Of a DNA stretch of 24,000 nt, positions 1,932 through 20,917 are shown in pieces. The stretch comes from Promethearchaeota archaeon. Its GTDB lineage: Archaea; Asgardarchaeota; Lokiarchaeia; Sigyniarchaeales; SOKP01. The stretch is from positions 5,257 to 29,256 of the forward strand of contig JBHLME010000028.1 in NCBI GenBank assembly GCA_048938445.1, read 5' to 3'. A program made the translations under genes and the position numbers. The notes beneath the pieces are model-generated. The model saw only the letters and a list, made by a program, of their open reading frames with translations, was not told the DNA's origin and made no database searches. Positions within the stretch are counted from its first letter, which is position 1. Each line of letters starts with the position of its first letter.

Positions 1932-3149
1932 ATGAAAATTGATTATACGTCTTATAAAGATGTAGATTTAAAAGGAAAAAAAGTGTTAATGCGTGTTGAT
2001 ATCAACTCAAACATCGATCTAGAGAACAATAAGATTAGAGATTCACCTCGAATTCGTGCACTAGTTCCAGCATTAGAAGAGTTAAAAGAGAGTGCAATTA
2101 TTATATTAGCCCATCAATCTAGACCGGGAATGGATGATTTTACAAATTTAGATATCCATGCAAAAGAAATTGAAAGTCAATTGGGACGTCCTGTTAAATT
2201 TGTCGAGGATATTTTTGGAGCAAAAGCAGTAAATGCCATTAAAAATTTAAATCCTGGGGAAATCCTTGTTTTAAACAATGTTAGAAAATATGAAGAGGAA
2301 ATGAAAAATTATAAAGAATTTTCAGATGCAGAAAATACTGAAATGATTAAAACTTTATACCCTTTAATAGATTACGCAATAGTGGATGCTTTTGGAGCAG
2401 CTCATAGAGCTCACGCATCAATTGTCGGATGGCCAAAAATGTTAGCGGGGCCTATTACAACCAAAGAATTATATGCCTTGAAAAAAATAATGGATGAACC
2501 CGACAAACCAATGGCAATGTTGATTGGAGGAGCAAAAGCAATAGATAAATTTAAGGCAATGAATTATAATTTTGAAAATGACAAGCTAGATTATGCCTTA
2601 TGTTCGGGATTGACAGCGATATTAATATTTGAAGCTTTAGGTAAAGATATGGGAAGTGTAAATCATAAAATCATAGCAGAAGATTTAGAAGCAAATAAGA
2701 GCATGATTGCTGAAACCTATAAGAAATTTAAAGATAAAATAATCCTCCCTCAAGATCTAATCATTGACGAAAATGGTAATAGAAAAACCATTACAATTGA
2801 TGAAGCAGGTACCGCCAACACCACTACAGGTGATATTGGACCAAAAACTTCTGAAAACTTTAAGGAGATAATCATGAAAAGCAAGACCATTGTTGCAAAT
2901 GGGCCACCAGGAATATTCGAGAAAGAGGTGTTTAAAAAGGCAACCTATGACATGGTAGATGCGATGGTTGAAGCCACTAAAAAAGGTGCCTTAACAATAA
3001 TTGGGGGCGGCGAAATGGGTGCAGCGGCAGAAATGTCTGGTAAAGGTGATGGTATTTCTTTCATATCTACGGCAGGTGGAGCAATGTTAGAAATACTCTC
3101 AGGGAAAGATCTTCCCATGATAAAAGCATTAAGGGAAAAGAAACTATAA
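1932..3149 (+). CDS. pgk: Phosphoglycerate kinase (archaeal type)
   Basis: The translation MKIDYTSYKDVDLKGKKVLMRVDINSNI...RIRALVPALEEL...LAHQSRPG...GGGEMGAAAE matches PGK N-terminal and C-terminal hallmark segments. The track ORF starts at TTG 1887, but ATG 1932 gives the usual PGK N-terminus. Confidence 0.9.
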   Translation: MKIDYTSYKDVDLKGKKVLMRVDINSNIDLENNKIRDSPRIRALVPALEELKESAIIILAHQSRPGMDDFTNLDIHAKEIESQLGRPVKFVEDIFGAKAVNAIKNLNPGEILVLNNVRKYEEEMKNYKEFSDAENTEMIKTLYPLIDYAIVDAFGAAHRAHASIVGWPKMLAGPITTKELYALKKIMDEPDKPMAMLIGGAKAIDKFKAMNYNFENDKLDYALCSGLTAILIFEALGKDMGSVNHKIIAEDLEANKSMIAETYKKFKDKIILPQDLIIDENGNRKTITIDEAGTANTTTGDIGPKTSENFKEIIMKSKTIVANGPPGIFEKEVFKKATYDMVDAMVEATKKGALTIIGGGEMGAAAEMSGKGDGISFISTAGGAMLEILSGKDLPMIKALREKKL

Positions 3150-3170
3150 TTTTTTTTTATATTTTTTTTT
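3150..3170 (+). terminator. Oligo-T termination signal after pgk
   Basis: Two T9 runs (3150-3158 and 3162-3170) follow the pgk stop codon directly. Oligo-T tracts are the usual archaeal intrinsic terminator signal. Confidence 0.4.
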
Positions 3171-3260
3171 ATTAATCATTTAACCTTTAGAGAAAAATTC
3201 TTTAAGCTTATAGTTTTAGTTATATTATAAAGTCTTATAATATTAATTTATATTTAATAG

Positions 3261-3361
3261 GCGCCCGTGGTCTAGAAAATTAAGGATTTCGCTTAATTGG
3301 ATAATGGTATGACGTCCGCTTGACGTGCGGAAGGTCGGGAGTTCAATCCTCCCCGGGCGCA
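3261..3361 (+). tRNA. tRNA-Val (anticodon GAC) with a roughly 28-29 nt intron in the D-loop
   Basis: Acceptor stem is GCGCCCG/CGGGCGC. T-arm is GGGAG-TTCAATC-CTCCC. Anticodon arm is TCCGC-TTGACGT-GCGGA, variable loop AGGTC, discriminator A, followed by a T8 run. The D-loop is interrupted at about 3276-3304 by an insert that folds as a 7-bp hairpin AATTAAG/CTTAATT. Removing it restores GTCT-AG(T/AT)GGTA-TGAC. Confidence 0.85.
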
Positions 3362-3591
3362 TTTTTTTTAAAGAATCTATTGTAATCTGTCTAAATCAAT
3401 ATCTTTTCCTGAAAGAATGTCATTTTAGTCATCTAATTTCTATAAAAATTTTGTTGGATTTAAAATTATATTATCTAGCTTTATCAATATTGATCTTGCT
3501 AGATTTATTAAGATCATTAAATAAAATATTAAATATAGAAAAAATCTATTAAAAAATTATTTCATAATTTATTTTAAGACGTTTTATCCAC

Positions 3592-5097
3592 ATGTCATTT
3601 TCAAAACCACTTAAAATTAGAAAGTTGCCATCTTTAAAGGAAGAAGTAAGAGTAAATATAAAAGATCTTAAGAAACTTTTATTTAACTCTGAATCCAATG
3701 AAAGTTGGAGTCTAAATAAATCAATTCTTGGATCTTATGCATATAAAATTCTTAAAGAACTGATTAAAATTCGGATTAATTATGGAATTTTGAATAATAT
3801 TAGAAAAACATTTGCCCAAATAGGAATTAAAAATATTTTAAATATACTTTTACTACAAATACACTTACTTGATGAAATGTCAAAAATCAATAGAAAATTT
3901 ATAAAGCAAGGGTGGAAACCACCTAATTTGATATATGAAAACAAAACTCCATTTTATACAATTAAAGAAGCTCAAAAAGAAGACGGAATGACGTCCTATG
4001 AGCGATTTAATACCGCAATTCAGCTAAAAGAGCCAGATAGGATTCCCATAACACCTTTAATGGACTACTACTATGCTGCAAATAATAACATGTCTGCAAA
4101 AGAATTTGTTCTCGCACCTTTTGAAAGAGTGTTTAATGCGGTAAGAAATACTTATAATCGTTTTAATGGAGTTCTGGATATGGTACATGTTCCCATGGGG
4201 CGCCTTTACGCTTTTTATAACATGCTACCATTAGCTCAGTCGGGATATTATGGGGAGCTAATTTATCCTGATGAAGTACCTAGTTCTTTACAATTTATCG
4301 AAAAAGGATACATTGACGTAAAAGATTTTAATCAAATCAAGAAAAATGGTCTAAAATCCATATGGAAACCAGTTAATCTCGAAAAAATTACCGATACTCA
4401 AGCAGATATAATAAAAATCGGTAAATTTATTAATTACTGGGAAAAGGATAAGAAAGTTCCTGTTTATGCGTCTAGTGGTATTATAACACCCTTAGAAGGG
4501 TTATGTTATTTAATGGGAATTAAAAATTGGTCAAAAGCGATAATTAAAAATAAAGAAGAAGTTAAAGAAATATGTGATTTATTTCTTAAAGGGATGATGG
4601 CAAATAATCTAATGATGTATCTATTTACTCAGGTAAAAAGAACGTATGTTTGTTTAGAGCGTGTCAGTTCTACCTTTCTTTCTCCGAAGAATTTTGAGGA
4701 ATTAGTGCTTCCTAGCTTGCTTACTATAATTAAATCGAACGTGAGGAATGGATTAACGACAGTGTTTCATATGGATACGGATTGGACACCATTTTTTCAT
4801 TATTTCCTAGAATTTCCTAAAAATGGGAAATACATTTTACATTTAGAAGATTCAGACATCTTTAAAGCTAAAGAAATGTTAGGTGATAGGTTTTGTTTGA
4901 TGGGCAATATTCAAACTAAACTCCTTCGATTTGGAACAGAAAAACAGATTGAGGATTATACAAGAAAATTAATAGAGATTTGCGGTGCAGGAGGCGGATA
5001 TTTAATGGCAGAAGGATGTGAAGTCGCTCCAGATACCCCAATGAGAAATATGAAAGTATGGATTGAAACCACTTTAAAATATGGTAAATATTCATAA
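3592..5097 (+). CDS. Uroporphyrinogen decarboxylase (URO-D)/MtaA-like methyltransferase family protein with an N-terminal extension
   Basis: From about residue 133 (ATG 3988) the sequence is URO-D/MtaA-like: MTSYERFNTAIQLKEPDRIPITPLM near the start and GGGYLMAEGCEVAPDTPMRNMKVWIE at the C-terminus. The upstream 132 codons are stop-free despite the AT-rich background, so they are probably translated, but I recognise no domain in them. Confidence 0.75.
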   Translation: MSFSKPLKIRKLPSLKEEVRVNIKDLKKLLFNSESNESWSLNKSILGSYAYKILKELIKIRINYGILNNIRKTFAQIGIKNILNILLLQIHLLDEMSKINRKFIKQGWKPPNLIYENKTPFYTIKEAQKEDGMTSYERFNTAIQLKEPDRIPITPLMDYYYAANNNMSAKEFVLAPFERVFNAVRNTYNRFNGVLDMVHVPMGRLYAFYNMLPLAQSGYYGELIYPDEVPSSLQFIEKGYIDVKDFNQIKKNGLKSIWKPVNLEKITDTQADIIKIGKFINYWEKDKKVPVYASSGIITPLEGLCYLMGIKNWSKAIIKNKEEVKEICDLFLKGMMANNLMMYLFTQVKRTYVCLERVSSTFLSPKNFEELVLPSLLTIIKSNVRNGLTTVFHMDTDWTPFFHYFLEFPKNGKYILHLEDSDIFKAKEMLGDRFCLMGNIQTKLLRFGTEKQIEDYTRKLIEICGAGGGYLMAEGCEVAPDTPMRNMKVWIETTLKYGKYS

Positions 5098-5212: not shown

Positions 5213-5488
5213 TCATACCTCTGATATAGTAATTAAAGATTGATTTTTAGTTAATTCATTTAACATGCTATCGATTATTGTTCCATAATCTGCTATTTCT
5301 AGCTTGATTAACCTGTTTTTAAAAGAATTATTGATAACTTTATATAAATCACCATAATTTACTGATCTTAACTCAACAAAAGCCCCTAACTCTTCTTTTA
5401 TAGATAATTTTAACAACCCCCTAGCTGCTGTAGGGCTAATACCAATTTCTTTTGCTAAGAATTCTCCCAAATATCTAATAATTTCCAT
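5213..5488 (-). CDS. Hypothetical small helical protein (91 aa)
   Basis: Stop-free ORF with an ATG start and no overlap with another gene. I recognise no motif. Confidence 0.45.
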   Translation of the reverse strand: MEIIRYLGEFLAKEIGISPTAARGLLKLSIKEELGAFVELRSVNYGDLYKVINNSFKNRLIKLEIADYGTIIDSMLNELTKNQSLITISEV

Positions 5489-7890: not shown

Positions 7891-8370
7891 ATGCCTTTAA
7901 GAATTCGTTGGAAATCGGGAGAATATCTCCCTTTTGCATTAATGATGTTCGGAATGTGTGGTTTATTCCAATTGATTTTTATATTTATAGCTCAATATTT
8001 TTTAGATATTGGTAATTATTTTATCATTATCATCATTCCTATTGCGGTTACCGCAGCATTATATTATTCTTCAAAAATCATTTTTGAAAGTTATGCACAG
8101 ATTGAAAGAAGAAATAAATTGAAAAGCCAATTTCGAAAAGCAAAAATAAGCGAAACAAGAATTAAAAAGATACTCGAATTCCCAATTTCTAAACCTATCT
8201 TGGTTACTTTTGGAATTTTTACATTTCTGTTTATTATTGGATATATAATATGTATATTGTTTTCAGATAGCATGGTTTCCTTTTTAATAGCGGAAAATGC
8301 AGGTGCAATAGCATGTTTAGTATTTGCGGACTATTTTGAGAAAAATTATGGAAAAATTAGGAGATTCTAA
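7891..8370 (+). CDS. Hypothetical integral membrane protein (about 4 TM segments)
   Basis: Four long hydrophobic stretches are separated by a basic loop (RRNKLKSQFRKAKISETRIKK). ATG start. No recognised family. Confidence 0.5.
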   Translation: MPLRIRWKSGEYLPFALMMFGMCGLFQLIFIFIAQYFLDIGNYFIIIIIPIAVTAALYYSSKIIFESYAQIERRNKLKSQFRKAKISETRIKKILEFPISKPILVTFGIFTFLFIIGYIICILFSDSMVSFLIAENAGAIACLVFADYFEKNYGKIRRF

Positions 8371-8757
8371 AATATTCGAATTAAAAGTGTGATAAAGCTA
8401 TAGTTCGATTAATAGCTCTTTTTGGACTTTTCAACAATATTAATTCATTTTAATACTAGGTCTTTTCTTATTGTGAAATATATTTTTTATCAAATTTACT
8501 TTAAAGTTAAATTTTTAAGGTCAAATAAAAGCTCTGCTAAAATGATTTTCATGTATTTAATATAGATTTATATTTACGATAATTGAATATTATTATGTAT
8601 CGAAAAAAAACAAATAACTTTGAATATTAAATCATCATTAAAAAATTATATAACAATATCCACATAGATATCTAAGTATAAGTTTGAAAACAGAGCAGGT
8701 GTGTTAGATTAGGAAATGGAATATTTTTTCCGAGAAATAGGGGGTTAAATATATCAT

Positions 8758-9297
8758 ATGAAGGATCTTCATTACCGATTTAAAATAATTGTAGCAGGAG
8801 ATGGTGGGGTGGGAAAGACTACTCTAATATATCGTTATGTAGATGGTACATTTAAATCCAATACTAGCATGACAATTGGTATCCAGTTTCATCAAAAATT
8901 TATAGATCTTAATGATAATACTACATGTGAATTATTGCTGTGGGATCTTGGAGGACAAGACCATTTTCGTGCTATTTTAAAGAGATTCGTTAAAGGTTCC
9001 CATGGAGCATTGTTAATGTTTGATTTATCAAGGATTATAACGTTGTTTAACCTTGATGAATGGATGGAACTTCTTAGCGACTCCGAACCAGATATTCCAA
9101 TTGTCCTCATAGGCGGGAAAGCAGATTTACTAGAAAAGGGTGTTTTCCCTTATCAAGATAAACTACTAGAATTTAAAGAAAAATATAATTTTGAAAATGT
9201 TATATTTGTATCTTCAAAGACAGGAGAGAATGTTAATGAAGTATTTGAATTTATAACTAAAGAAATTATTAAAAGTCATGATTCTAATGATAAATAG
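8758..9297 (+). CDS. Ras-superfamily small GTPase (Rab/Ras-like)
   Basis: G1 is GDGGVGKTT. Switch I threonine lies in SMTIGIQF. G3 is WDLGGQDHF. G4 is a variant, GGKAD, in place of NKxD. G5 is SSKTGENV. A GGGGGT purine-rich stretch lies about 14 nt upstream of the ATG. Confidence 0.9.
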   Translation: MKDLHYRFKIIVAGDGGVGKTTLIYRYVDGTFKSNTSMTIGIQFHQKFIDLNDNTTCELLLWDLGGQDHFRAILKRFVKGSHGALLMFDLSRIITLFNLDEWMELLSDSEPDIPIVLIGGKADLLEKGVFPYQDKLLEFKEKYNFENVIFVSSKTGENVNEVFEFITKEIIKSHDSNDK

Positions 9298-9515: not shown

Positions 9516-9945
9516 ATGAAAAATAAGATTTTTATCATTTCATGTAGAATATTTTAATTACAAAGTCACAAAAAAAGGACGTTCTAAGGTTTTTGAGGAA
9601 ATTACAGAAGAAAATAAAAAAAATCAAGTTGAGAATGCAATAATTCTTTTTATTAGTATGGAAAAGCAGGATGAAAAAAGTTCAGGATTATTAGATAGAG
9701 CTGTAATTGAAATAGAAAATATTTGCGAACAATTAAAAAACTCTAATATAGTACTTTTACCATTTGCTCATCTTTTTGGTCAGCTAAGTTCTTTAAATTA
9801 TGCTTTTGAATCTTTTAAAAAAATTGAATCAATGCTAAAATTAAAAGATTATAACGTAATACGTCTTCCATTTGGATGGTTTAATGAATTAGAAATGAAA
9901 GCTAAAGGACATCCACTATCACGAATTTCCCGGATAATAGAATAA
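9516..9945 (+). CDS. Stand-alone archaeal ThrRS-type editing domain (DTD-like fold) protein, apparently frameshifted near the 5' end
   Basis: The track ORF 9658-9945 carries PFAHLFGQLSS...LPFGWFNELEMKAKGHPLSRISRII, which matches the archaeal ThrRS N-terminal editing domain pattern PFAHLS...PFG...CKGHPLSE.SR.I. The same frame stays open and homologous back to 9520 (FHVEYFNYKV...ILFISMEKQDEK) but has no start codon. ATG 9516 in the -1 frame encodes MKNKIFII. One T fewer in the TTT run at 9538-9540 joins them into a roughly 142-aa domain. Confidence 0.65.
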
Positions 9946-10243: not shown

Positions 10244-10513
10244 ATGAGGATTAAAATATTATTCCATATTTTAGCAATATTTTTATTTCTTTTTGGATGT
10301 GTTGTTTTACATGTTGTTGTAAATTCTGAGGAAATATTTGTAATTTTTTTTGGAATTTTCTTACCAAGAGCATTTTTCTTTGATCTTGCCATTGTGGTTA
10401 TTGGTATTGCATTTTTTATAGAATTCTTCATGACATTCAAACCAATAAAAATTATTAATTTTTCCCTTCTTGATAAAGATTTGAATAATATGAACGAGAA
10501 CAGTAATGTCTAA
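10244..10513 (+). CDS. Hypothetical small membrane protein (89 aa)
   Basis: Three hydrophobic segments and an ATG start. The competing antisense ORF 10219-10440 looks less protein-like. Weak support only. Confidence 0.35.
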   Translation: MRIKILFHILAIFLFLFGCVVLHVVVNSEEIFVIFFGIFLPRAFFFDLAIVVIGIAFFIEFFMTFKPIKIINFSLLDKDLNNMNENSNV

Positions 10514-10670: not shown

Positions 10671-10865
10671 TTATAAATATTTATCGTAAGAGTCATCATA
10701 ATCTAGTGATTCATCATATTCACCATATTCATACCATTCATCATCATCGAATTTTAAATCGAAATACTCATCATCTTCATAATCGTCCCAATCTTTAGCC
10801 AGAGAGAGCCAAATAGAACACTTATATATGGTACAAAGAGGAAATGCTAATTGTTTAAATTTCAT
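10671..10865 (-). CDS. Hypothetical small protein with an extremely acidic/aromatic C-terminal tail (64 aa)
   Basis: ATG-started ORF. The C-terminal 40 residues are almost entirely D/E/Y/W/F (DWDDYEDDEYFDLKFDDDEWYEYGEYDESLDYDDSYDKYL). It sits next to the tandem-repeat promoter region. Coding status is unproven. Confidence 0.3.
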   Translation of the reverse strand: MKFKQLAFPLCTIYKCSIWLSLAKDWDDYEDDEYFDLKFDDDEWYEYGEYDESLDYDDSYDKYL

Positions 10866-11046: not shown

Positions 11047-11412
11047 ATGAGTGAATTAATATTTAATAAAAAGATAATTAAAGAAGCGGAAAATGACTTC
11101 AAAAAAATTAATTTAACAAAAATAGCAAGAGAAAACTTAGATCAAACTGCTCAAATATTTGCACAGTACTTACCCATTTCAGAGATGGCGCTGAAGGGAT
11201 TCATTTTGTATTGTATGCAGGAATATCAAGTAAAAAATAAAATAGACCTATCTTCCTTTTATGATTCAACTCCAGAGGAAAAAAAGAAAATAATAGGCAG
11301 TATGGCGGAGTTATTACAAGCGCGTTTAACTAAATTACTCATTAAACCAGAACAAAAACCTATATTAGATAATGCTTTCAATGAAGTAATAAAATTTTTA
11401 AAAACTCTCTAA
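11047..11412 (+). CDS. Hypothetical helical protein (121 aa)
   Basis: Non-overlapping ATG-started ORF downstream of the tandem repeat. No recognised motif. Confidence 0.5.
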   Translation: MSELIFNKKIIKEAENDFKKINLTKIARENLDQTAQIFAQYLPISEMALKGFILYCMQEYQVKNKIDLSSFYDSTPEEKKKIIGSMAELLQARLTKLLIKPEQKPILDNAFNEVIKFLKTL

Positions 11413-11539
11413 ATATTTGCTTTTTTAAAATATTATTAAAGAATAGGATGATTAATTTTTTTTTTCAAAATTTCGAATACAATCAACTTAGTTATTTATA
11501 AAAAAATAGAAAACATTTTATATATGATAATATAAATAG

Positions 11540-11671
11540 TGCGCCCTCCGGGGATCGAACCCGGGTCACCTTCAACAATCAAGACGATTTGTCTCGTTTT
11601 AGGTTGGCAACCTGTTTTACCCTTTCAATGCTGATTTGAAAAGGGTATACTGGCCACTATACTAAGAGCGC
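11540..11671 (-). tRNA. tRNA-Gly (anticodon GCC) interrupted by two introns inside the anticodon stem
   Basis: On the minus strand the acceptor is GCGCTCT/AGGGCGC (G1:C72, C2:G71, G3:C70), D-arm GTAT-AGTGGCCAGT-ATAC, T-arm CCGGG-TTCGATC-CCCGG, discriminator A. The 132-nt locus gives a 74-nt cloverleaf only if 11615-11642 (28 nt) and 11571-11600 (30 nt) are removed. That yields the anticodon arm CCAGG-TTGCCAA-CCTGG and variable loop TGAC. The second intron forms a textbook hBHBh' motif: H is CAAC/GTTG, the 3-nt bulges are CT|A and AA|G, and the outer helix is GTTGC/GTGAC. The first intron has only a relaxed motif. Confidence 0.7.
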
Positions 11672-13051: not shown

Positions 13052-13678
13052 TTAATCTTGTTTGAGCCTGTCTAATTCTTTCTCGAGTTCGCTTATTCTT
13101 CCTTCAGGGACGACACTAGGCAATGCGCCCCCCATTTCTACTTGAAGTTCAGCATCAATTTCGCCTAAAAAGCTTTTGACATCAGAATCAGTCACAGCTG
13201 TTTCCATAGCTACGTTTCCTACGCCCTCTGAAGCGATTTCTTGTCCAACATCGAAGTCAGAAACATCCATTTCAAGATTTTTCATTACTTCGGTTAATTC
13301 AGGAAGTGATAACTCATTTTTTAATTGAGCCAAGGATCCTTGAATATCCCCCATAATTCCTGCTACATCTTTTATAGCTGATGCTTGTTCTAATTTAAAT
13401 TGTAATCCCTCTAGATTAGATCTAAAAGTATCGATGGCTGTTGCTTGTTTTTTGACTTGTAGGTAATTTCTTGCTTGATTTTCCGATCCTTGCTTGTCAC
13501 CTTCTTGCCTCATTTTTACGGCTTTATCTCGAGCTTGTTGTGCGGTTATTTCTAATTTTCTTGATTGCCTTAACAGTCTTTTATTGAAGACTTTTAATTT
13601 AATAGCAGCAGCACGAACAGTATCAGGTTTTTTCTTTCCGCCACTTAACCATTTTGATAAATCCTTAAGAAAACCCAT
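13052..13678 (-). CDS. ESCRT-III subunit, Snf7/CHMP family (Vps2/24/46-like, with a C-terminal MIM1-like helix)
   Basis: 208 aa. The protein has a basic N-terminal half (MGFLKDLSKWLSGGKKK...KLKVFNKRLLRQSRKLE...) and an acidic C-terminal half, which is the ESCRT-III charge asymmetry, with heptad-rich helices. The C-terminal ISELEKELDRLKQD aligns with the MIM1 pattern L-x3-L-x2-L-(K/R), as in the DLEERLKNLRR type. Confidence 0.88.
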   Translation of the reverse strand: MGFLKDLSKWLSGGKKKPDTVRAAAIKLKVFNKRLLRQSRKLEITAQQARDKAVKMRQEGDKQGSENQARNYLQVKKQATAIDTFRSNLEGLQFKLEQASAIKDVAGIMGDIQGSLAQLKNELSLPELTEVMKNLEMDVSDFDVGQEIASEGVGNVAMETAVTDSDVKSFLGEIDAELQVEMGGALPSVVPEGRISELEKELDRLKQD

Positions 13679-13893
13679 AAATATTCATCTAATAATGTTT
13701 GTTTTATAGTATATATATAAACACATAGTTATAAAATTAATTGGAGTCCATTAATTATAACATGATAATGAAGAACTTTCAACTTTAAATAAATTTGGAT
13801 TAGATTAATTTTTTATAGTAAAAATATGATTTATTTAATAACATTATTTTACTTTATAATAAATATCAAGTTTACTCATAGGTAATATAAAAC

Positions 13894-15120
13894 ATGTCAT
13901 CATTTGATAGTAAATTATACAAATTCGCCGTTGAGACTGCTAGGGAGGCGGTTGTTTTGGATAGACAAGGTAAATATCAGCAAGCGTATAATAAATATAT
14001 GAGAGCTGCTGAAATTTTGATTAAATTCATGAAGTTTAGTAATAATAAAGAGATGAACGAATTATGCCGAAAAAATAGTCAGGATTATATTGATCGAGCT
14101 AAAATTTTAAAATCCAAGATAGGTGGATCCCGTTCGAGACCAGTAAAAGCCGCACCTTCAGAAGAATCTAGTCACCCAATGGACGATAAATTAAAATCTG
14201 AAGGAGGGCAATATTCAGAAGAAGAACAAGAATTAATAGATTCTATCTCCGGAACAATCGTAACTGAATCTCCTGATATACAATGGAGTGATATAGCTGG
14301 TTTAGAAAATTGTAAGCAAATATTAAGAGAAGCAATCGTCTTACCATTAATAAAACCAGAATTATTCACCGGTAAAAGAAAACCATGGTCGGGGATTTTA
14401 TTATTTGGACCTCCAGGTTGTGGAAAAACATTATTAGCGAAAGCTGCTGCAACAGAATGCAAAGCTACATTTTTTAGTGCATCTTCGGCAGATCTATTAA
14501 GTAAATGGTTAGGAGAAAGCGAAAAATTAATCAGCTCTTTATTCAAAGTTGCAAGAATAAGAGCACCAAGTTTAATTTTCATTGATGAAATTGATTCTGT
14601 TGCCACTTCAAGAGGAGGTGGTACTGAGAGTAGTGGTGAACGACGTGTAAAAACACAGCTTCTAAGTGAAATACAAGGCTTAAAGACGAGTGAAAGGCAG
14701 CGAATTTTAACATTAGGTGCAACAAATCGACCATGGGATATTGATGATGCCATGTTAAGTAGATTTCAAAAAAAAGTGCATGTTCCTCTTCCGGATTTAG
14801 AGGCGCGATCAGCTATCTTCATAATTGAAACAAAAGGCGTTGAGATGGATTTAGAAGAAGATGATTTTATTGAATTAGGTGTAAGATCAGAAGGATATTC
14901 CGGACGAGATATTTCAAATGTATGCCAAGAAGTAATTATGCTTCCAATTAGAGAATTAGATATGAGTGGATTATTGGAAAATTCCAATCAGGAAATTTCT
15001 CTAAGATCAATTAATATTGATGATTTTAAAAAAACCATTAAAAAAATAAAACCAATGACAACTGGTAGCTCTTTAAAGAAGTATGTGGAATGGGCTGACG
15101 AGTACGGAGAGACCACATAA
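13894..15120 (+). CDS. vps4: Vps4-type AAA+ ATPase (MIT domain + AAA + Vps4 C-terminal helix)
   Basis: The N-terminal MIT-like three-helix region is AVETAREAVVLDRQGKYQQAYNKYMRAAEILIKFMK. Walker A is GPPGCGKT. Pore loop 1 is KWLGESEK. Walker B is LIFIDEIDS. The second region of homology is GATNRPWDIDDAMLSRF. The C-terminus LKKYVEWADEYG is typical of Vps4/CdvC. Confidence 0.95.
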   Translation: MSSFDSKLYKFAVETAREAVVLDRQGKYQQAYNKYMRAAEILIKFMKFSNNKEMNELCRKNSQDYIDRAKILKSKIGGSRSRPVKAAPSEESSHPMDDKLKSEGGQYSEEEQELIDSISGTIVTESPDIQWSDIAGLENCKQILREAIVLPLIKPELFTGKRKPWSGILLFGPPGCGKTLLAKAAATECKATFFSASSADLLSKWLGESEKLISSLFKVARIRAPSLIFIDEIDSVATSRGGGTESSGERRVKTQLLSEIQGLKTSERQRILTLGATNRPWDIDDAMLSRFQKKVHVPLPDLEARSAIFIIETKGVEMDLEEDDFIELGVRSEGYSGRDISNVCQEVIMLPIRELDMSGLLENSNQEISLRSINIDDFKKTIKKIKPMTTGSSLKKYVEWADEYGETT

Positions 15121-15142
15121 AAAAAAAAAGGAAAATGGTAAA

Positions 15143-16051
15143 ATGGAAAAACAAAGAGAAAAACCAAAAGAAAAGGACAAGGAATTAATTGAGTTACAAA
15201 AAGAACTCCAAAGATTAAGAGAATTAAAGAGACAAAAAGAATTAAAAGCTTTAGAGGAGAGAAAAGCTCTAGAAGCCCAAGAAAAAGAGCAAATTCAAAA
15301 GAGTGAAGAATATCATCCTCAAGAACCGAGTACTGAAGCTGAAACCGAAGATGATGTTGAAAATAGATTGAATAAAATTAGTGATTTCATAACACATAGT
15401 TTGGGTGATATAGATGATCAAACATATGCAGAACATTCTGGGGCTATAGAATCTGAGCTACAAAGATTAGAAAAAGAGATAATTGGAGAAGCGGGATTAA
15501 TCGAAAAAGAATTATCTCCTTATGAAAAAATTGTAGAAGCTTACCCATGGCTGGAAGAAAAACGATATGAATTCATGTATACGATTCCACATCATAAAAA
15601 AAATCTAAATGATTATCAATCATGGCGAAAGGAATGGTCAAAAGTATTTTTTGATTATGCGAGATATGCAATTCTTCATATTATTTATATAAAGCAAATA
15701 GCTGCAGAAAAACCATTCTCAAAATTTGAAGACCGCCAGAAAGCAATAAAGGAAATTGCAGATGAATTGGTCACGCAAGGAATTGCGAAATTTTTAACTA
15801 AAAAACAAGAGATATTAAGAGTATATTGGAAGTCTCTTGATAGCTGGGCAGATGAGATATATAATTGGGCATATGATTTGGGTAAATTAGATCCGATAAT
15901 GCTATTTGAGATAAGAGATGCTAAGTTGGAATTCAGCACGCTTCCTAAGGAAGATTTAGAAGAAATTTTTAATATATTAGCACGAAATCAAAAAGCTAAA
16001 GTATTAAAACTTGAAGAAGGTCAAATAGCATTAAAAATAAAATTAGAATGA
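15143..16051 (+). CDS. ESCRT-II Vps25-like protein (tandem winged-helix C-terminal region) with a long charged coiled-coil N-terminal extension
   Basis: ATG 15143 lies 22 nt after the vps4 stop, on the same strand, so this looks like an operon. The track start at 15083 overlaps vps4 and is unlikely. The C-terminal roughly 175 aa follow the Vps25 layout: YPWLEEKRYEFMYTIPHH...YQSWRKEWSKVFFDYARYAILH, then IMLFEIRD...LPKEDLEEIFNILARNQKAKVLKLEEGQIALKIK (a WH2-like ending). The N-terminal roughly 125 aa are K/E-rich heptads. Confidence 0.7.
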   Translation: MEKQREKPKEKDKELIELQKELQRLRELKRQKELKALEERKALEAQEKEQIQKSEEYHPQEPSTEAETEDDVENRLNKISDFITHSLGDIDDQTYAEHSGAIESELQRLEKEIIGEAGLIEKELSPYEKIVEAYPWLEEKRYEFMYTIPHHKKNLNDYQSWRKEWSKVFFDYARYAILHIIYIKQIAAEKPFSKFEDRQKAIKEIADELVTQGIAKFLTKKQEILRVYWKSLDSWADEIYNWAYDLGKLDPIMLFEIRDAKLEFSTLPKEDLEEIFNILARNQKAKVLKLEEGQIALKIKLE

Positions 16052-16067
16052 ATATTTTCTGCTTTTT

Positions 16068-16781
16068 TTATATTGAAGGAAATGACCATTGTTTTCCTTT
16101 TAATAGTGATTCAGTATATTTAGCAGCTCCAGATTCCTCAAGAGAGTTTAATGCTCTTAATGCTCGATCTTGGGACCAATCTAGTGTAGTACAAACCTCT
16201 TCTAATGAAACATATCCTTTTTCTTTGGCTAAATCCATTATTTTTACCTGATCACTTGTATATTGAATTGGAAAAAAGTGTATGAATAGTGCACCTGATT
16301 CTAATTGCTTAATATCCTCAATAACATTGGTTTTTTTCAAGATTCTCATTGATTTAGTTAAATCCCTGATATCAAAGTTATTCTTCAGACTTCCAGTATT
16401 TACTAAGTCAAAAACTTCTGAAATTGGCACTATTCCCCCAGTTTCTTCTTTATGCATTAAAACTCTCTGATATGCTAACATGCCTAGTTTCTCAAGATCA
16501 ATTTTATTTTTTGCATCAAATACATCGTTTTCTTTAATCTGCTCTGTTATGATTCGTGATGTAGGAATGTTATATTTTTCCCTTAATGTTTTAACCTCTT
16601 GTTTCAATTCAGGAGTTAGTGCTAAAATAACGCCGTGCTTTTTTGCTAAATCAATAAGTCTCTCTTTAGTGAAATTTTCTGCAGATGCTTTAGCTTTAAT
16701 CTCTTTTATTCTTAATTCTGCTGCTCTTTTGCGCATTGCTTCTTTTAGATCAATATCATCTTCAATTTTTCGAATACCCAT
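16068..16781 (-). CDS. ESCRT-II EAP30-domain protein (Vps22/Vps36-like)
   Basis: The sequence ETGGIVPISEVFDLVNTGSLKNNFDIRDLTKSMRILKK...LESGALFI... followed by DQVKIMDLAKEKGYVSLEEVCTTLDWSQDRALRALNSLEESGAAKY fits the two winged-helix repeats of the EAP30 family. The N-terminus is a basic helix (RKRAAELRIKEIKAK). Confidence 0.8.
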   Translation of the reverse strand: MGIRKIEDDIDLKEAMRKRAAELRIKEIKAKASAENFTKERLIDLAKKHGVILALTPELKQEVKTLREKYNIPTSRIITEQIKENDVFDAKNKIDLEKLGMLAYQRVLMHKEETGGIVPISEVFDLVNTGSLKNNFDIRDLTKSMRILKKTNVIEDIKQLESGALFIHFFPIQYTSDQVKIMDLAKEKGYVSLEEVCTTLDWSQDRALRALNSLEESGAAKYTESLLKGKQWSFPSI

Positions 16782-20545: not shown

Positions 20546-20917
20546 ATGATATGTATTCACGGTTTAGATGATAACAATTGTCCAATTTGCCGAATTAATG
20601 CTTCAACAATTCCTAAAGATTCAATCAAGATCTATGAACTTCATGTTAACGAATTAAAACCTTATTATCATGAATCAACATTAAAAGCAGATACAGTTGA
20701 CAAGATTAACTCAAAAACAAATCGTCATAAATCATTATTAAAAATGACGTCAATAAATCCCGTTCCCGAAGCTAAAACATTGAATGAACTACCAAATTTT
20801 GAAAATAAGATGTTTCAAGAGAGATTAAATGAATTAAGTTTTGATAAATCAGACAAGATTAAACTTTTGAAAAAAATATCTCTTGAAAGCCCAGAATGGA
20901 AATTTGAAGAGAAATAA
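20546..20917 (+). CDS. Hypothetical protein with an N-terminal Cys/His metal-knuckle motif (123 aa)
   Basis: ATG-started, non-overlapping ORF. The N-terminus is MICIHGLDDNNCPIC (C-x-H-x7-C-x2-C). The remainder is polar or helical with no recognised family. Confidence 0.45.
   Translation: MICIHGLDDNNCPICRINASTIPKDSIKIYELHVNELKPYYHESTLKADTVDKINSKTNRHKSLLKMTSINPVPEAKTLNELPNFENKMFQERLNELSFDKSDKIKLLKKISLESPEWKFEEK

Follow-up and report, generated by a model that had tools for sequence, protein, structure and literature searches.

Does a group of four adjacent genes on an archaeal contig encode a compact eukaryote-type ESCRT module, or can its members be accounted for by a Cdv-type division system, by DNA-binding regulators or by eukaryotic DNA in the assembly? 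The genes lie in the middle of the window (the whole 24,000-nucleotide stretch that was analysed), which comes from a Promethearchaeota metagenome-assembled genome. The features of the locus are as follows.

13052-13678, minus strand: ESCRT-III protein, assigned from its sequence to the A-type; 208 aa; Pfam Snf7
13679-13893, no strand: divergent intergenic region; 215 nt, AT-rich
13894-15120, plus strand: Vps4 AAA+ ATPase; 408 aa; Pfam MIT, AAA, AAA_lid_3 and Vps4_C
15143-16051, plus strand: Vps25, ESCRT-II subunit; 302 aa; Pfam PF05871 ESCRT-II
16068-16781, minus strand: Vps22-like EAP30-domain ESCRT-II subunit; 237 aa; Pfam PF04157 EAP30

The locus and its neighbourhood

The four open reading frames are present at the coordinates and on the strands given in a preliminary description of the sequence, and the 22 nt that it reported between vps4 and vps25 were found. 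The divergent ESCRT-III and vps4 genes are 215 nt apart, and 16 nt separate the stop codons of the convergent vps25 and EAP30 genes. The genes vps4 and vps25 are probably co-transcribed. Promoters for both the ESCRT-III gene and the vps4-vps25 pair presumably lie in the 215-nt region, with candidate TATA-like AT-rich runs about 30-40 nt 5' of each flanking ATG. The length of this spacer is kept in related genomes (median 212 nt, 68 loci).

With the Pfam gathering score as cut-off, exceeded by all four proteins, profile searches matched each of the families proposed earlier (Snf7, MIT, AAA, Vps4_C, EAP30 and ESCRT-II/Vps25). These matches and those in the PDB uphold the original claim that an archaeal genome here encodes ESCRT-III, Vps4 and two ESCRT-II subunits of eukaryote type. 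Identical proteins are on record in NCBI metagenome-assembled genomes labelled 'Promethearchaeota archaeon'. We consider it very likely that the four genes form the core ESCRT locus of an Asgard archaeon of Lokiarchaeia type, for which a mechanism is proposed below.

The surroundings are archaeal, as had been stated: PdaD, PGK and other housekeeping genes were confirmed. Two tRNA-like genes, at about 3260-3366 (plus) and 11539-11671 (minus), are each interrupted by an insert. Since the four families are otherwise eukaryotic signatures, a eukaryotic contaminant in the assembly, or recent eukaryote-to-archaeon transfer, has to be weighed. However, GC content is uniform across the window (about 27-35%) with no island, the four genes are compact and intron-less, and the neighbours PdaD, deoxyhypusine synthase and the ThrRS editing domain are archaeal housekeeping genes. 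The locus, together with its archaeal neighbours PfkB, NIP7-PUA and RsmB/F, also recurs in 68 independent assemblies. In sequence, moreover, the ESCRT-II subunits resemble eukaryotic ones only distantly: E-values range from 5e-5 to 1.8e-9, and the fold alignments show 18-22% identity. A eukaryotic origin of this kind is exceedingly improbable, being refuted by conserved synteny and composition, and the earlier judgement that the genes are not contamination is supported.

Profile scans of the open reading frames agree with the observation that CdvA, ESCRT-I and ubiquitin genes are not visible in the window: the CdvA, Vps23, Vps28, UEV, ubiquitin and E1/E2 families gave zero matches among the frames scanned. 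Neither the window nor about 9.5 kb of its right flank yielded ESCRT-I, ubiquitin, CdvA or a second ESCRT-III. In Lokiarchaeum, ESCRT-I and the second ESCRT-III are found at distant locus tags (PMC5840170, Table 1). Of the two possibilities raised at first, a minimal module or one split across loci, the latter holds in the reference Lokiarchaeum; by analogy with relatives, B-type ESCRT-III, ESCRT-I and ubiquitin genes are assumed to be present elsewhere in the source genome.

ESCRT-III and Vps4

The ESCRT-III protein matches Pfam Snf7 with E=3.3e-13 (50.1 bits, cut-off 27.3). A profile of 18 orthologues, searched against PDB sequences, matched CHMP1B (1.1e-10), CHMP2A (7e-10) and CHMP1A (8.5e-7). 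No chain named Snf7, CHMP4, CHMP6 or Vps20 occurs among the best 60 of its 65 matches at E<=1. Judged by sequence, the protein is an A-type paralogue (Vps2/24/46, CHMP1-3 class). Its N-terminal half is basic (pI 10.3, residues 1-120) and its C-terminal half acidic (pI 4.05, residues 121-208). At the C-terminus the residues L198, E199, E201, L202, L205 and K206 do not vary and form the motif LExELx[RK]LK, which is preceded by an ALPS/T motif. This predicted C-terminal helix is MIM1-like, with Glu in place of the canonical MIM1 arginine in the protein's family.

Vps4 has Pfam matches to MIT (2.5e-12), AAA (2.7e-39), AAA_lid_3 (1.3e-7) and Vps4_C (2.1e-5), and over its full length it matches human VPS4B (5.2e-93) and yeast Vps4 (7e-92). 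Walker A (GPPGCGKT) and the pore loop (SKWLGESEKL) are identical in 80/80 orthologues; the Walker B core DEID and the end of pore loop 2, ERRVKTQLL, are retained in all listed variants. The SRH sequence is LSRF, so that, compared with yeast, Ser presumably takes the place of one of two adjacent arginine fingers. Alignments with eukaryotic Vps4 end near residue 358, whereas that with CdvC (4lcb) continues to the C-terminus. The predicted architecture comprises an MIT domain, a single AAA cassette and a helix at the C-terminus, without the beta-domain that is the Vta1-binding site of eukaryotic Vps4.

The missing beta-domain and the contiguous CdvC alignment would suit a Cdv-type division system (CdvB plus CdvC) lying beside two unrelated winged-helix proteins. 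The best-named NCBIfam matches are also CdvB (9.4e-4) and CdvC (1.7e-77), and the ESCRT-III profile matches CdvB chains in the PDB at 7e-6. The equivalog cut-offs, however, are far above the scores obtained (18.9 bits against 370 for CdvB, 260.8 against 650 for CdvC), and no CdvA was found in the scanned frames. The ESCRT-III protein has 208 aa against the 260 positions of the CdvB model and ends in the MIM1-like helix, with no space for the C-terminal winged-helix region of CdvB. The MIT domain resembles those of yeast and human Vps4 more closely than that of Sulfolobus CdvC, the match to yeast (1.2e-6) being about 10^5-fold better than that to the CdvC MIT domain (2w2u, 0.13). The two winged-helix proteins are, in addition, specifically Vps25 and Vps22. 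In published trees the Loki orthologues fall with eukaryotic Vps4 and CHMP1-3 (PMC7240154, PMC11804906). The Cdv-type reading is largely refuted and highly improbable; the low NCBIfam scores and the Vps4-like MIT domain bear out the view that the pair is not CdvB/CdvC-like.

The ESCRT-II subunits

The Vps25 protein matches PF05871 ESCRT-II (4.1e-11, residues 145-257). In the PDB it matches 9uyv_A, 'ESCRT-II complex subunit' (8.2e-52, residues 109-301), 7pb9_A, 'Tandem WH domains of Vps25' (1.6e-25), and the eukaryotic proteins yeast Vps25 (5e-5) and human VPS25 (3.6e-3). A charged helical N-terminal extension of about 135 aa is followed by tandem winged-helix domains. The extension is conserved in the family and has two conserved helical segments. 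Homologues number at least 461, and those listed (120) have lengths of about 300 aa. The AF2 model of the protein is of low confidence (pLDDT 61). Translation is taken to start at the ATG at 15143 rather than the upstream ATG at 15083, because 20 aligned homologues share the N-terminus ME[KR]QR and the database record carries the 302-aa product, the 322-aa form being absent from it.

The EAP30 protein consists of N-terminal helices and two winged-helix domains, encoded convergently with vps25. It matches PF04157 EAP30 (1e-9, residues 97-219), yeast Vps22 (1.8e-9, residues 38-218) and human SNF8 (4.6e-7), while yeast Vps36 is matched only at 0.036. It had been called Vps22/36-like; the first half of that label stands and the second does not. 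In a Foldseek comparison of its AF2 model (pLDDT 73) with the PDB, human Vps22 (3cuq_A, 1e-8) was the top match, followed by human Vps36 and yeast Vps22. It has at least 630 homologues, of which 20 aligned ones are 66-88% identical to it.

Could this pair instead be DNA-binding regulators of the DeoR/ArsR type? Residues 176-220 of the EAP30 protein do give weak HTH_DeoR (0.011) and ArsR/DeoR NCBIfam matches, and JGI labels some of its homologues 'predicted DNA binding protein'. But these matches are all under cut-off and span one winged helix only, whereas EAP30 and ESCRT-II exceed theirs; the 9uyv_A match, the top five fold matches (all ESCRT-II Vps22 or Vps36 chains) and the strict linkage of the winged-helix genes to vps4 in 80/80 loci argue against regulators as well. 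Such a function is very improbable. The ESCRT-II assignment rests on significant matches to the EAP30 and Vps25 families.

Related systems and a proposed mechanism

The closest published arrangement is that of Lokiarchaeum sp. GC14_75, a different species likened here through published locus data. The same four genes occupy consecutive locus tags: Lokiarch_37450 (EAP30/Vps22), 37460 (Vps25), 37470 (Vps4) and 37480 (Vps2/24/46-class ESCRT-III) (PMC5840170, Table 1; PMC4571567). The window ESCRT-III takes the position of Lokiarch_37480 (208 against 209 aa) and shares its basic-N/acidic-C charge split (PMC5840170). Neither cluster contains ESCRT-I or the second ESCRT-III, and no architectural difference was detected; we take the locus to be orthologous to Lokiarch_37450-37480.

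ESCRT-II, ESCRT-III and VPS4 of 'Ca. Prometheoarchaeum syntrophicum' MK-D1 have also been studied (bioRxiv 10.1101/2025.11.01.685982), and 9uyv_A is probably the crystal structure of its VPS25. As in the window, MK-D1 Vps25 has a tandem winged-helix core with an N-terminal extension and its Vps4 lacks the human VPS4 insertion. The preprint models the extension as unstructured, in contrast to the conserved helical segments seen here.

Eukaryotic ESCRT-II (Vps22-Vps36-Vps25x2), ESCRT-III (CHMP1-3 class) and Vps4 have homologous domains throughout. The MIT domain and a MIM1-like motif on ESCRT-III are common to both, as is ESCRT-III charge asymmetry, and Vps4 retains its pore loop and arginine collar. 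Unlike the eukaryotic system, the locus has no Vps36, a Vps22 homodimer having been proposed instead (PMC9192718), Vps25 carries its additional N-terminal residues, Vps4 lacks the beta-domain and the genes are clustered in prokaryotic style. The crenarchaeal/TACK Cdv system (CdvA, CdvB, CdvC) likewise pairs an ESCRT-III homologue with an MIT-AAA ATPase without beta-domain, but CdvA was not found in the window locus, which has ESCRT-II subunits. CdvB uses MIM2 and lacks MIM1 (PMC7240154), in contrast to the MIM1-like end of the window protein.

Loki Vps22 interacts with itself, Asgard Vps25 interacts with ESCRT-IIIB in two-hybrid assays, and Vps25 is tightly linked with ESCRT-III and Vps4 genes (PMC9192718). 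In the proposed mechanism the Vps22-like protein would homodimerise and bind one Vps25 per Vps22, giving a Y-shaped ESCRT-II-like adaptor. Vps25 would then nucleate a B-type ESCRT-III encoded elsewhere; ESCRT-IIIB is the Vps20/32/60-type paralogue under the naming of PMC11804906. Because Asgard Vps25 binds ESCRT-IIIB (PMC9192718), this is its expected partner, not the neighbouring A-type. A-type ESCRT-III is recruited by B-type (PMC11804906), and the B-type polymer may recruit the protein of this locus, which would draw the membrane into a tube; Heimdall proteins offer an in vitro precedent. The MIT domains of a Vps4 hexamer would dock on the MIM1-like helix and the pore loops thread the A-type subunit, disassembling the polymer and completing remodelling. 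Loki Vps4 is an active ATPase with MIT-MIM1 binding that partially rescues a yeast vps4 deletion (PMC7240154). The analysis itself establishes which protein and subfamily each gene encodes, the motifs and the conserved arrangement of the genes. All these interactions we infer for the present module, as we do its cellular role, candidates being division and the formation of vesicles or protrusions.

The cluster is already known: it was described in Lokiarchaeum in 2015, and practically all related Asgard genomes carry it. Since the source is itself an Asgard genome, the module is an expected Asgard signature rather than an extension of it; the feature is real and was correctly read, yet ordinary for a Lokiarchaeia-type genome. 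Among 80 species-level Asgard genomes, whose proteins are 46-90% identical to those of the window, 68 complete four-gene loci were found. Order and orientation are identical in all 68, each from another species, so the arrangement is not due to chance.

The four-gene locus and its setting

The preliminary description had placed four adjacent reading frames in the middle of the window, and the ORF list bears out all four, in coordinates as well as strand.

Genes of the ESCRT locus, with their Pfam matches
13052-13678, minus strand: ESCRT-III (Snf7), 208 aa; Snf7 3.3e-13
13894-15120, plus strand: Vps4, 408 aa; MIT 2.5e-12, AAA 2.7e-39, AAA_lid_3 1.3e-7, Vps4_C 2.1e-5
15143-16051, plus strand: Vps25, 302 aa; ESCRT-II (Vps25 family) 4.1e-11
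16068-16781, minus strand: EAP30 protein (Vps22), 237 aa; EAP30 1e-9

The ESCRT-III and Vps4 genes diverge across 215 nt, vps25 follows vps4 in tandem after 22 nt, and vps25 and vps22 converge with 16 nt between them. The family identities first proposed for the products (Snf7, MIT/AAA/Vps4_C, EAP30 and Vps25/ESCRT-II) hold in profile searches, where the Pfam matches of all four proteins exceed the curated gathering scores. What this analysis shows directly is the identity of each protein, the motifs and the way the genes are arranged; the earlier interpretation of the module is supported with minor corrections.

Genes of eukaryotic type in an archaeal assembly might stem from contaminating eukaryotic DNA. 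As the preliminary description had argued from the neighbouring genes, this is excluded; the neighbours are archaeal, and the composition is uniform as well (GC ~29%, no compositional island). The ESCRT locus is surrounded by archaeal housekeeping genes, and the neighbouring genes encode PGK, deoxyhypusine synthase, PdaD, a ThrRS editing domain, PfkB, a NIP7-type PUA protein, RsmB/F and a CYTH protein. The exact four proteins are present in NCBI as two accession sets (MFX1274844-47 and MFX1383675-78), both from MAGs named 'Promethearchaeota archaeon', the Asgard phylum; there Snf7 and Vps4 carry generic annotations, and Vps25 and Vps22 are each a 'hypothetical protein'. A Ras/Rab-family GTPase, another Asgard hallmark, is also encoded in the window. 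The source is an Asgard archaeon, in which such an ESCRT module is expected.

When one genome per GTDB species was scanned, 123 genomes were found to contain a Vps25 relative, and the best 80 of these 123 with a taxonomic label are all Asgard MAGs. Searches by tblastn with the window proteins recovered all four genes in 68/80 loci; the remaining 12 are mostly cut by contig ends. The order and orientation ESCRT-III(-), Vps4(+), Vps25(+), Vps22(-) occurs in every complete locus (68/68). The flanks are conserved too, with PfkB upstream and NIP7-PUA and RsmB/F downstream, and the median intergenic distances of the related loci (212, 28 and 14 nt) fit the spacing in the window.

The Ras/Rab-family GTPase gene is at 8758-9297 (+), at a distance of 3.7 kb from the gene for ESCRT-III. 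In 16/68 related loci (e.g., those labelled L016, at 3134-3631, L029, L036 and L039) the place directly between PfkB and the ESCRT-III gene is taken, on the same strand, by a Rab-like GTPase with 34-40% identity to that of the window. Lokiarchaeal genomes carry many Ras/Rab-type GTPases, so the proximity of this gene to the ESCRT-III gene may be simply inherited synteny.

ESCRT-III and Vps4

The ESCRT-III protein matches PF03357 over residues 28-190 with 50.1 bits (cut-off 27.3). A profile built from 18 orthologues, when compared with PDB sequences, retrieved CHMP1B (1.1e-10), CHMP2A (7e-10), CHMP1A (8.5e-7) and Vps24 (5.8e-6); no eukaryotic chain named Snf7, CHMP4, CHMP6 or Vps20 occurs among the best 60 of the 65 PDB matches at E<=1. 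The Heimdall ESCRT-IIIB was also matched, at 6.6e-6. The charge of the protein is split, residues 1-120 having a pI of 10.28 and residues 121-208 one of 4.05. A basic N-terminal and an acidic C-terminal half are a hallmark of ESCRT-III, associated with autoinhibition and membrane binding. The C-terminal helix, LExELx[RK]LK, is invariant in the 18 orthologues, and its leucine spacing is MIM1-like. The MIM1 consensus is (D/E)xxLxxRLxxL(K/R). In the window protein L198-x3-L202-x2-L205-K206 agrees with that motif in how the hydrophobic residues are spaced and in the basic residue at the end, yet Glu201 occupies what we take to be the position of the consensus Arg. Leucine-rich MIM1-like motifs have been described for Asgard proteins (PMC7240154). 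By the profile matches, which are closer to CHMP1/2/3 and Vps24 than to CHMP4/5/6/7, Snf7 and Vps20, the protein is assigned to the A-type paralogues, i.e., the Vps2/24/46 = CHMP1-3 class, where A denotes the CHMP1-3 type and B the CHMP4-7 type (PMC11804906).

Vps4 has a MIT domain at the N-terminus (47.2 bits), one AAA cassette (AAA 135.1 bits, AAA_lid_3 31.5 bits) and a Vps4_C helix (24.9 bits), each exceeding its own Pfam cut-off. The protein aligns over its full length with human VPS4B (5.2e-93) and yeast Vps4. Walker A (GPPGCGKT), the DEID core of Walker B and pore loop 1 (SKWLGESEKL) are kept in 80 orthologues, as is the arginine collar of pore loop 2 (R240, R250 and R251), a feature already described for Asgard Vps4 (PMC7240154). 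The SRH of the window protein (S289-R290, window 14758-14763) reads ...AMLSRF, and LSRF is found in 80/80 Lokiarchaeial orthologues. In the meiotic clade (yeast Vps4, spastin, katanin) the same stretch reads RRF. One of two adjacent arginine fingers is therefore Ser, with one Arg retained. Alignment of Vps4 with p97 places a gap opposite the first Arg of p97. The Vps4 of Loki GC14_75 is an active ATPase, and no mention of arginine fingers was found in the paper that reports it (PMC7240154).

The eukaryote-specific beta-domain is absent from the window Vps4: matches to eukaryotic Vps4 end at about residue 358, and the length is 408 aa vs 437-444 aa in eukaryotes. This domain is the binding site of Vta1/LIP5. 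The VPS4 of MK-D1 ('Ca. Prometheoarchaeum syntrophicum') likewise has no beta-domain (bioRxiv 10.1101/2025.11.01.685982). The match to the CdvC structure 4lcb runs unbroken to the C-terminus.

An ESCRT-III/Vps4 pair in an archaeon could instead belong to the Cdv division system of crenarchaea. Scores for the NCBIfam equivalogs are far below their cut-offs, at 18.9 bits vs 370 for CdvB with the ESCRT-III protein and 260.8 bits vs 650 for CdvC with Vps4, and for the MIT domain of Vps4 the yeast protein is the far better match, at 1.2e-6 vs 0.13 for the MIT domain of Sulfolobus CdvC. CdvA had no match in any scanned ORF. The placement of the pair relative to Cdv and eukaryotic proteins is based on these comparative scores and on published trees of orthologues.

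Vps25 and Vps22

An ORF beginning at 15083 contains the Vps25 frame. The true start of vps25 is the ATG at 15143: the N-terminus ME[KR]QR is conserved in 20 aligned homologues, and the 302-aa product, not the 322-aa form, is on record. The protein scores 43.7 bits against PF05871 (cut-off 27). Residues 109-301 match 9uyv_A, a solved 'ESCRT-II complex subunit', at 8e-52; other PDB matches are 7pb9_A ('Tandem WH domains of Vps25', 1.6e-25), yeast Vps25 (5e-5) and human VPS25 (3.6e-3). By these Pfam and PDB sequence matches it has the tandem winged-helix core of the Vps25/EAP20 family.

An N-terminal extension, the first ~135 residues (window 15143-15550), is shared by a whole family (at least 461 proteins, those listed being ~300 aa long). 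Two conserved elements of the extension, the helix KELxxLRxELxRLRELKxQKE and the block IExRLxKID...IESELQxLExEI, flank a variable acidic linker. The extension is more than disordered sequence. In a study of MK-D1 the VPS25 extension was called unstructured (bioRxiv 10.1101/2025.11.01.685982), whereas two conserved helical segments are seen in the family of the window protein. N-terminal subdomains of Asgard Vps25, some of them steadiness-box-like, have already been described (PMC10936438). From 20 aligned sequences AF2 gave only a poor model of Vps25 (pLDDT 61), which was excluded from the fold search.

The label 'Vps22/36-like' given earlier to the product of 16068-16781 can be narrowed. Its Vps22 half stands, with a match to yeast Vps22 at 1.8e-9 over residues 38-218; its Vps36 half does not (0.036), and the protein contains no GLUE/PH or zinc-finger region. 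The EAP30 family score is 38.9 bits (PF04157, cut-off 26.8), and the protein has the layout of that family, helices at the N-terminus and then two winged helices. For the AF2 model (pLDDT 73), the five best PDB folds are human Vps22, human Vps36 and yeast Vps22, and the first Foldseek match is human Vps22 (1e-8, probability 1.00). The TM-scores are low (~0.31), presumably owing to different orientations of the domains.

In two related loci from closely related MAGs, L006 (10958-11807) and L010 (~3061-4161), the normally abutting vps25 and vps22 are ~1.1 kb apart. The insert in L006 contains two small unannotated ORFs of 152 aa and 92 aa. A partial second Vps25-like fragment (49% identity, E=6e-17) occurs at 8500-8718 in locus L054 of MAG Loki_b31, ~1.6 kb downstream of the full vps25.

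Pathway context and other features of the window

The preliminary description had seen no CdvA, ESCRT-I, ubiquitin or E1/E2 gene in the window, and Pfam scans of the ORFs agree. No gene for ESCRT-I (Vps23/UEV, Vps28), a steadiness-box protein, ubiquitin, E1/E2, CdvA or a second Snf7 protein (Vps20/32/60-class ESCRT-III) was found in the window or in ~9.5 kb of right flank. Seven unannotated ORFs (5213-5488, 7891-8370, 10244-10513, 10671-10865, 11047-11412, 20546-20917 and a 165-aa ORF beyond the window) gave no relevant match to ESCRT-I, ubiquitin or CdvA at Pfam E<=10.

In Lokiarchaeum GC14_75, Vps22/EAP30, Vps25, Vps4 and a Vps2-class ESCRT-III (209 aa) have the consecutive tags Lokiarch_37450-37480, and ESCRT-I genes (16740, 10170) and a Vps20/32/60-class ESCRT-III (16760) are found elsewhere (PMC5840170 Table 1; PMC4571567). 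The other genes of a complete ubiquitin-ESCRT pathway are present at other loci of that genome (PMC5840170; PMC9192718). Later papers have shown that Vps25 is tightly linked to ESCRT-III and Vps4 and that Vps22 interacts with itself (PMC9192718), and have dealt with the relation of MIT domains to MIM1 and MIM2 and the activity of Loki Vps4 in yeast (PMC7240154), with the diverse Asgard ESCRT architectures (PMC10936438) and with the MK-D1 ESCRT proteins, the crystal structure of VPS25 among them (bioRxiv 10.1101/2025.11.01.685982). The locus in the window is therefore orthologous to one that has been well described, and the module is already known and ubiquitous in the lineage.

Published work on orthologues suggests which interactions and what cellular role to expect. 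A Vps22 homodimer carrying Vps25 would serve as an ESCRT-II-like adaptor, and Vps25 would nucleate a B-type ESCRT-III encoded elsewhere. The B-type polymer would recruit the A-type ESCRT-III of the locus, whose C-terminal helix would be engaged by the Vps4 MIT domain, and the polymer would be disassembled through the Vps4 pore. In Lokiarchaeia the strictly conserved unit has, beside Vps25, the late-acting A-type ESCRT-III and not the B-type nucleator. Because of this pairing and the conserved N-terminal coiled-coil region of Vps25, the locus could also be read as a self-sufficient short circuit, in which the extension replaces the ESCRT-I/ubiquitin input and Vps25 directly seeds the A-type polymer; this is very improbable. 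To our knowledge, such wiring is not found in eukaryotes. Recruitment of the A-type protein through a B-type polymer is preferred; the two polymers act in sequence, B-type then A-type (PMC11804906). Vps25 of other Asgard archaea binds ESCRT-IIIB in two-hybrid assays (PMC9192718), and the ESCRT-III encoded beside vps25 is probably not a direct partner of Vps25.

The ESCRT-II, ESCRT-III and Vps4 proteins of Asgard archaea are central evidence that eukaryotic membrane-remodelling machinery is older than eukaryotes. That case was made in 2015-2017, and two-hybrid assays, biochemistry, crystal and cryo-EM structures and heterologous expression of Asgard ESCRT have followed. The window contributes one further orthologous copy, of small practical value. 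It shows that orthologues of Vps25 and Vps22 in new MAGs are still entered at NCBI as 'hypothetical protein', and documents the rigidity of the four-gene arrangement across Lokiarchaeia (68/68 loci).

Among the unannotated ORFs, the 121-aa ORF at 11047-11412 (+), which encodes a helical protein, was considered as an ESCRT component and rejected. It belongs to a family of its own, real and diverse (127 clusters at 50% identity in a search of 1.84 billion representatives), whose members are nearly always ~120-130 aa long; G51 and Q61 are invariant, and a (K)GF motif is conserved. It has no Pfam relative, the PDB gave nothing at E<0.2 for a 40-member profile, and in 82 related loci zero copies were found by tblastn.

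A free-standing, archaea-specific ThrRS editing domain is encoded at 9523-9945 (+) (140 aa, PF08915 4.1e-35) without the synthetase body; the mechanical ORF list, owing to its start-codon rule, gives only the last 95 aa. Two GC-rich tRNA genes, at 3260-3366 (+) and 11539-11671 (-), appear to be interrupted at unusual positions by AT-rich inserts. In the first, the 5' acceptor GGCGCCCG at 3260 is followed by a ~23-nt insert in the D-loop; ARAGORN recognizes just 3290-3360 of this gene, as tRNA-Val(GAC). The second is forced by ARAGORN -i into a tRNA-Phe(aaa) model that includes a 35-nt intron and a long extra arm; this gene may be one with two introns. Rfam detected no RNA family, tRNA included, in the window even at E<=0.01, which may be because both genes are interrupted.

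In a second assembly of the same organism the stretch is split into contigs of 22.7 kb and 8.2 kb. That sister assembly (locus L001, 15917-16111) annotates as a gene the 64-aa ORF at 10671-10865 (-), which has no family match and whose C-terminal half is extremely acidic and rich in Tyr, Asp and Glu.
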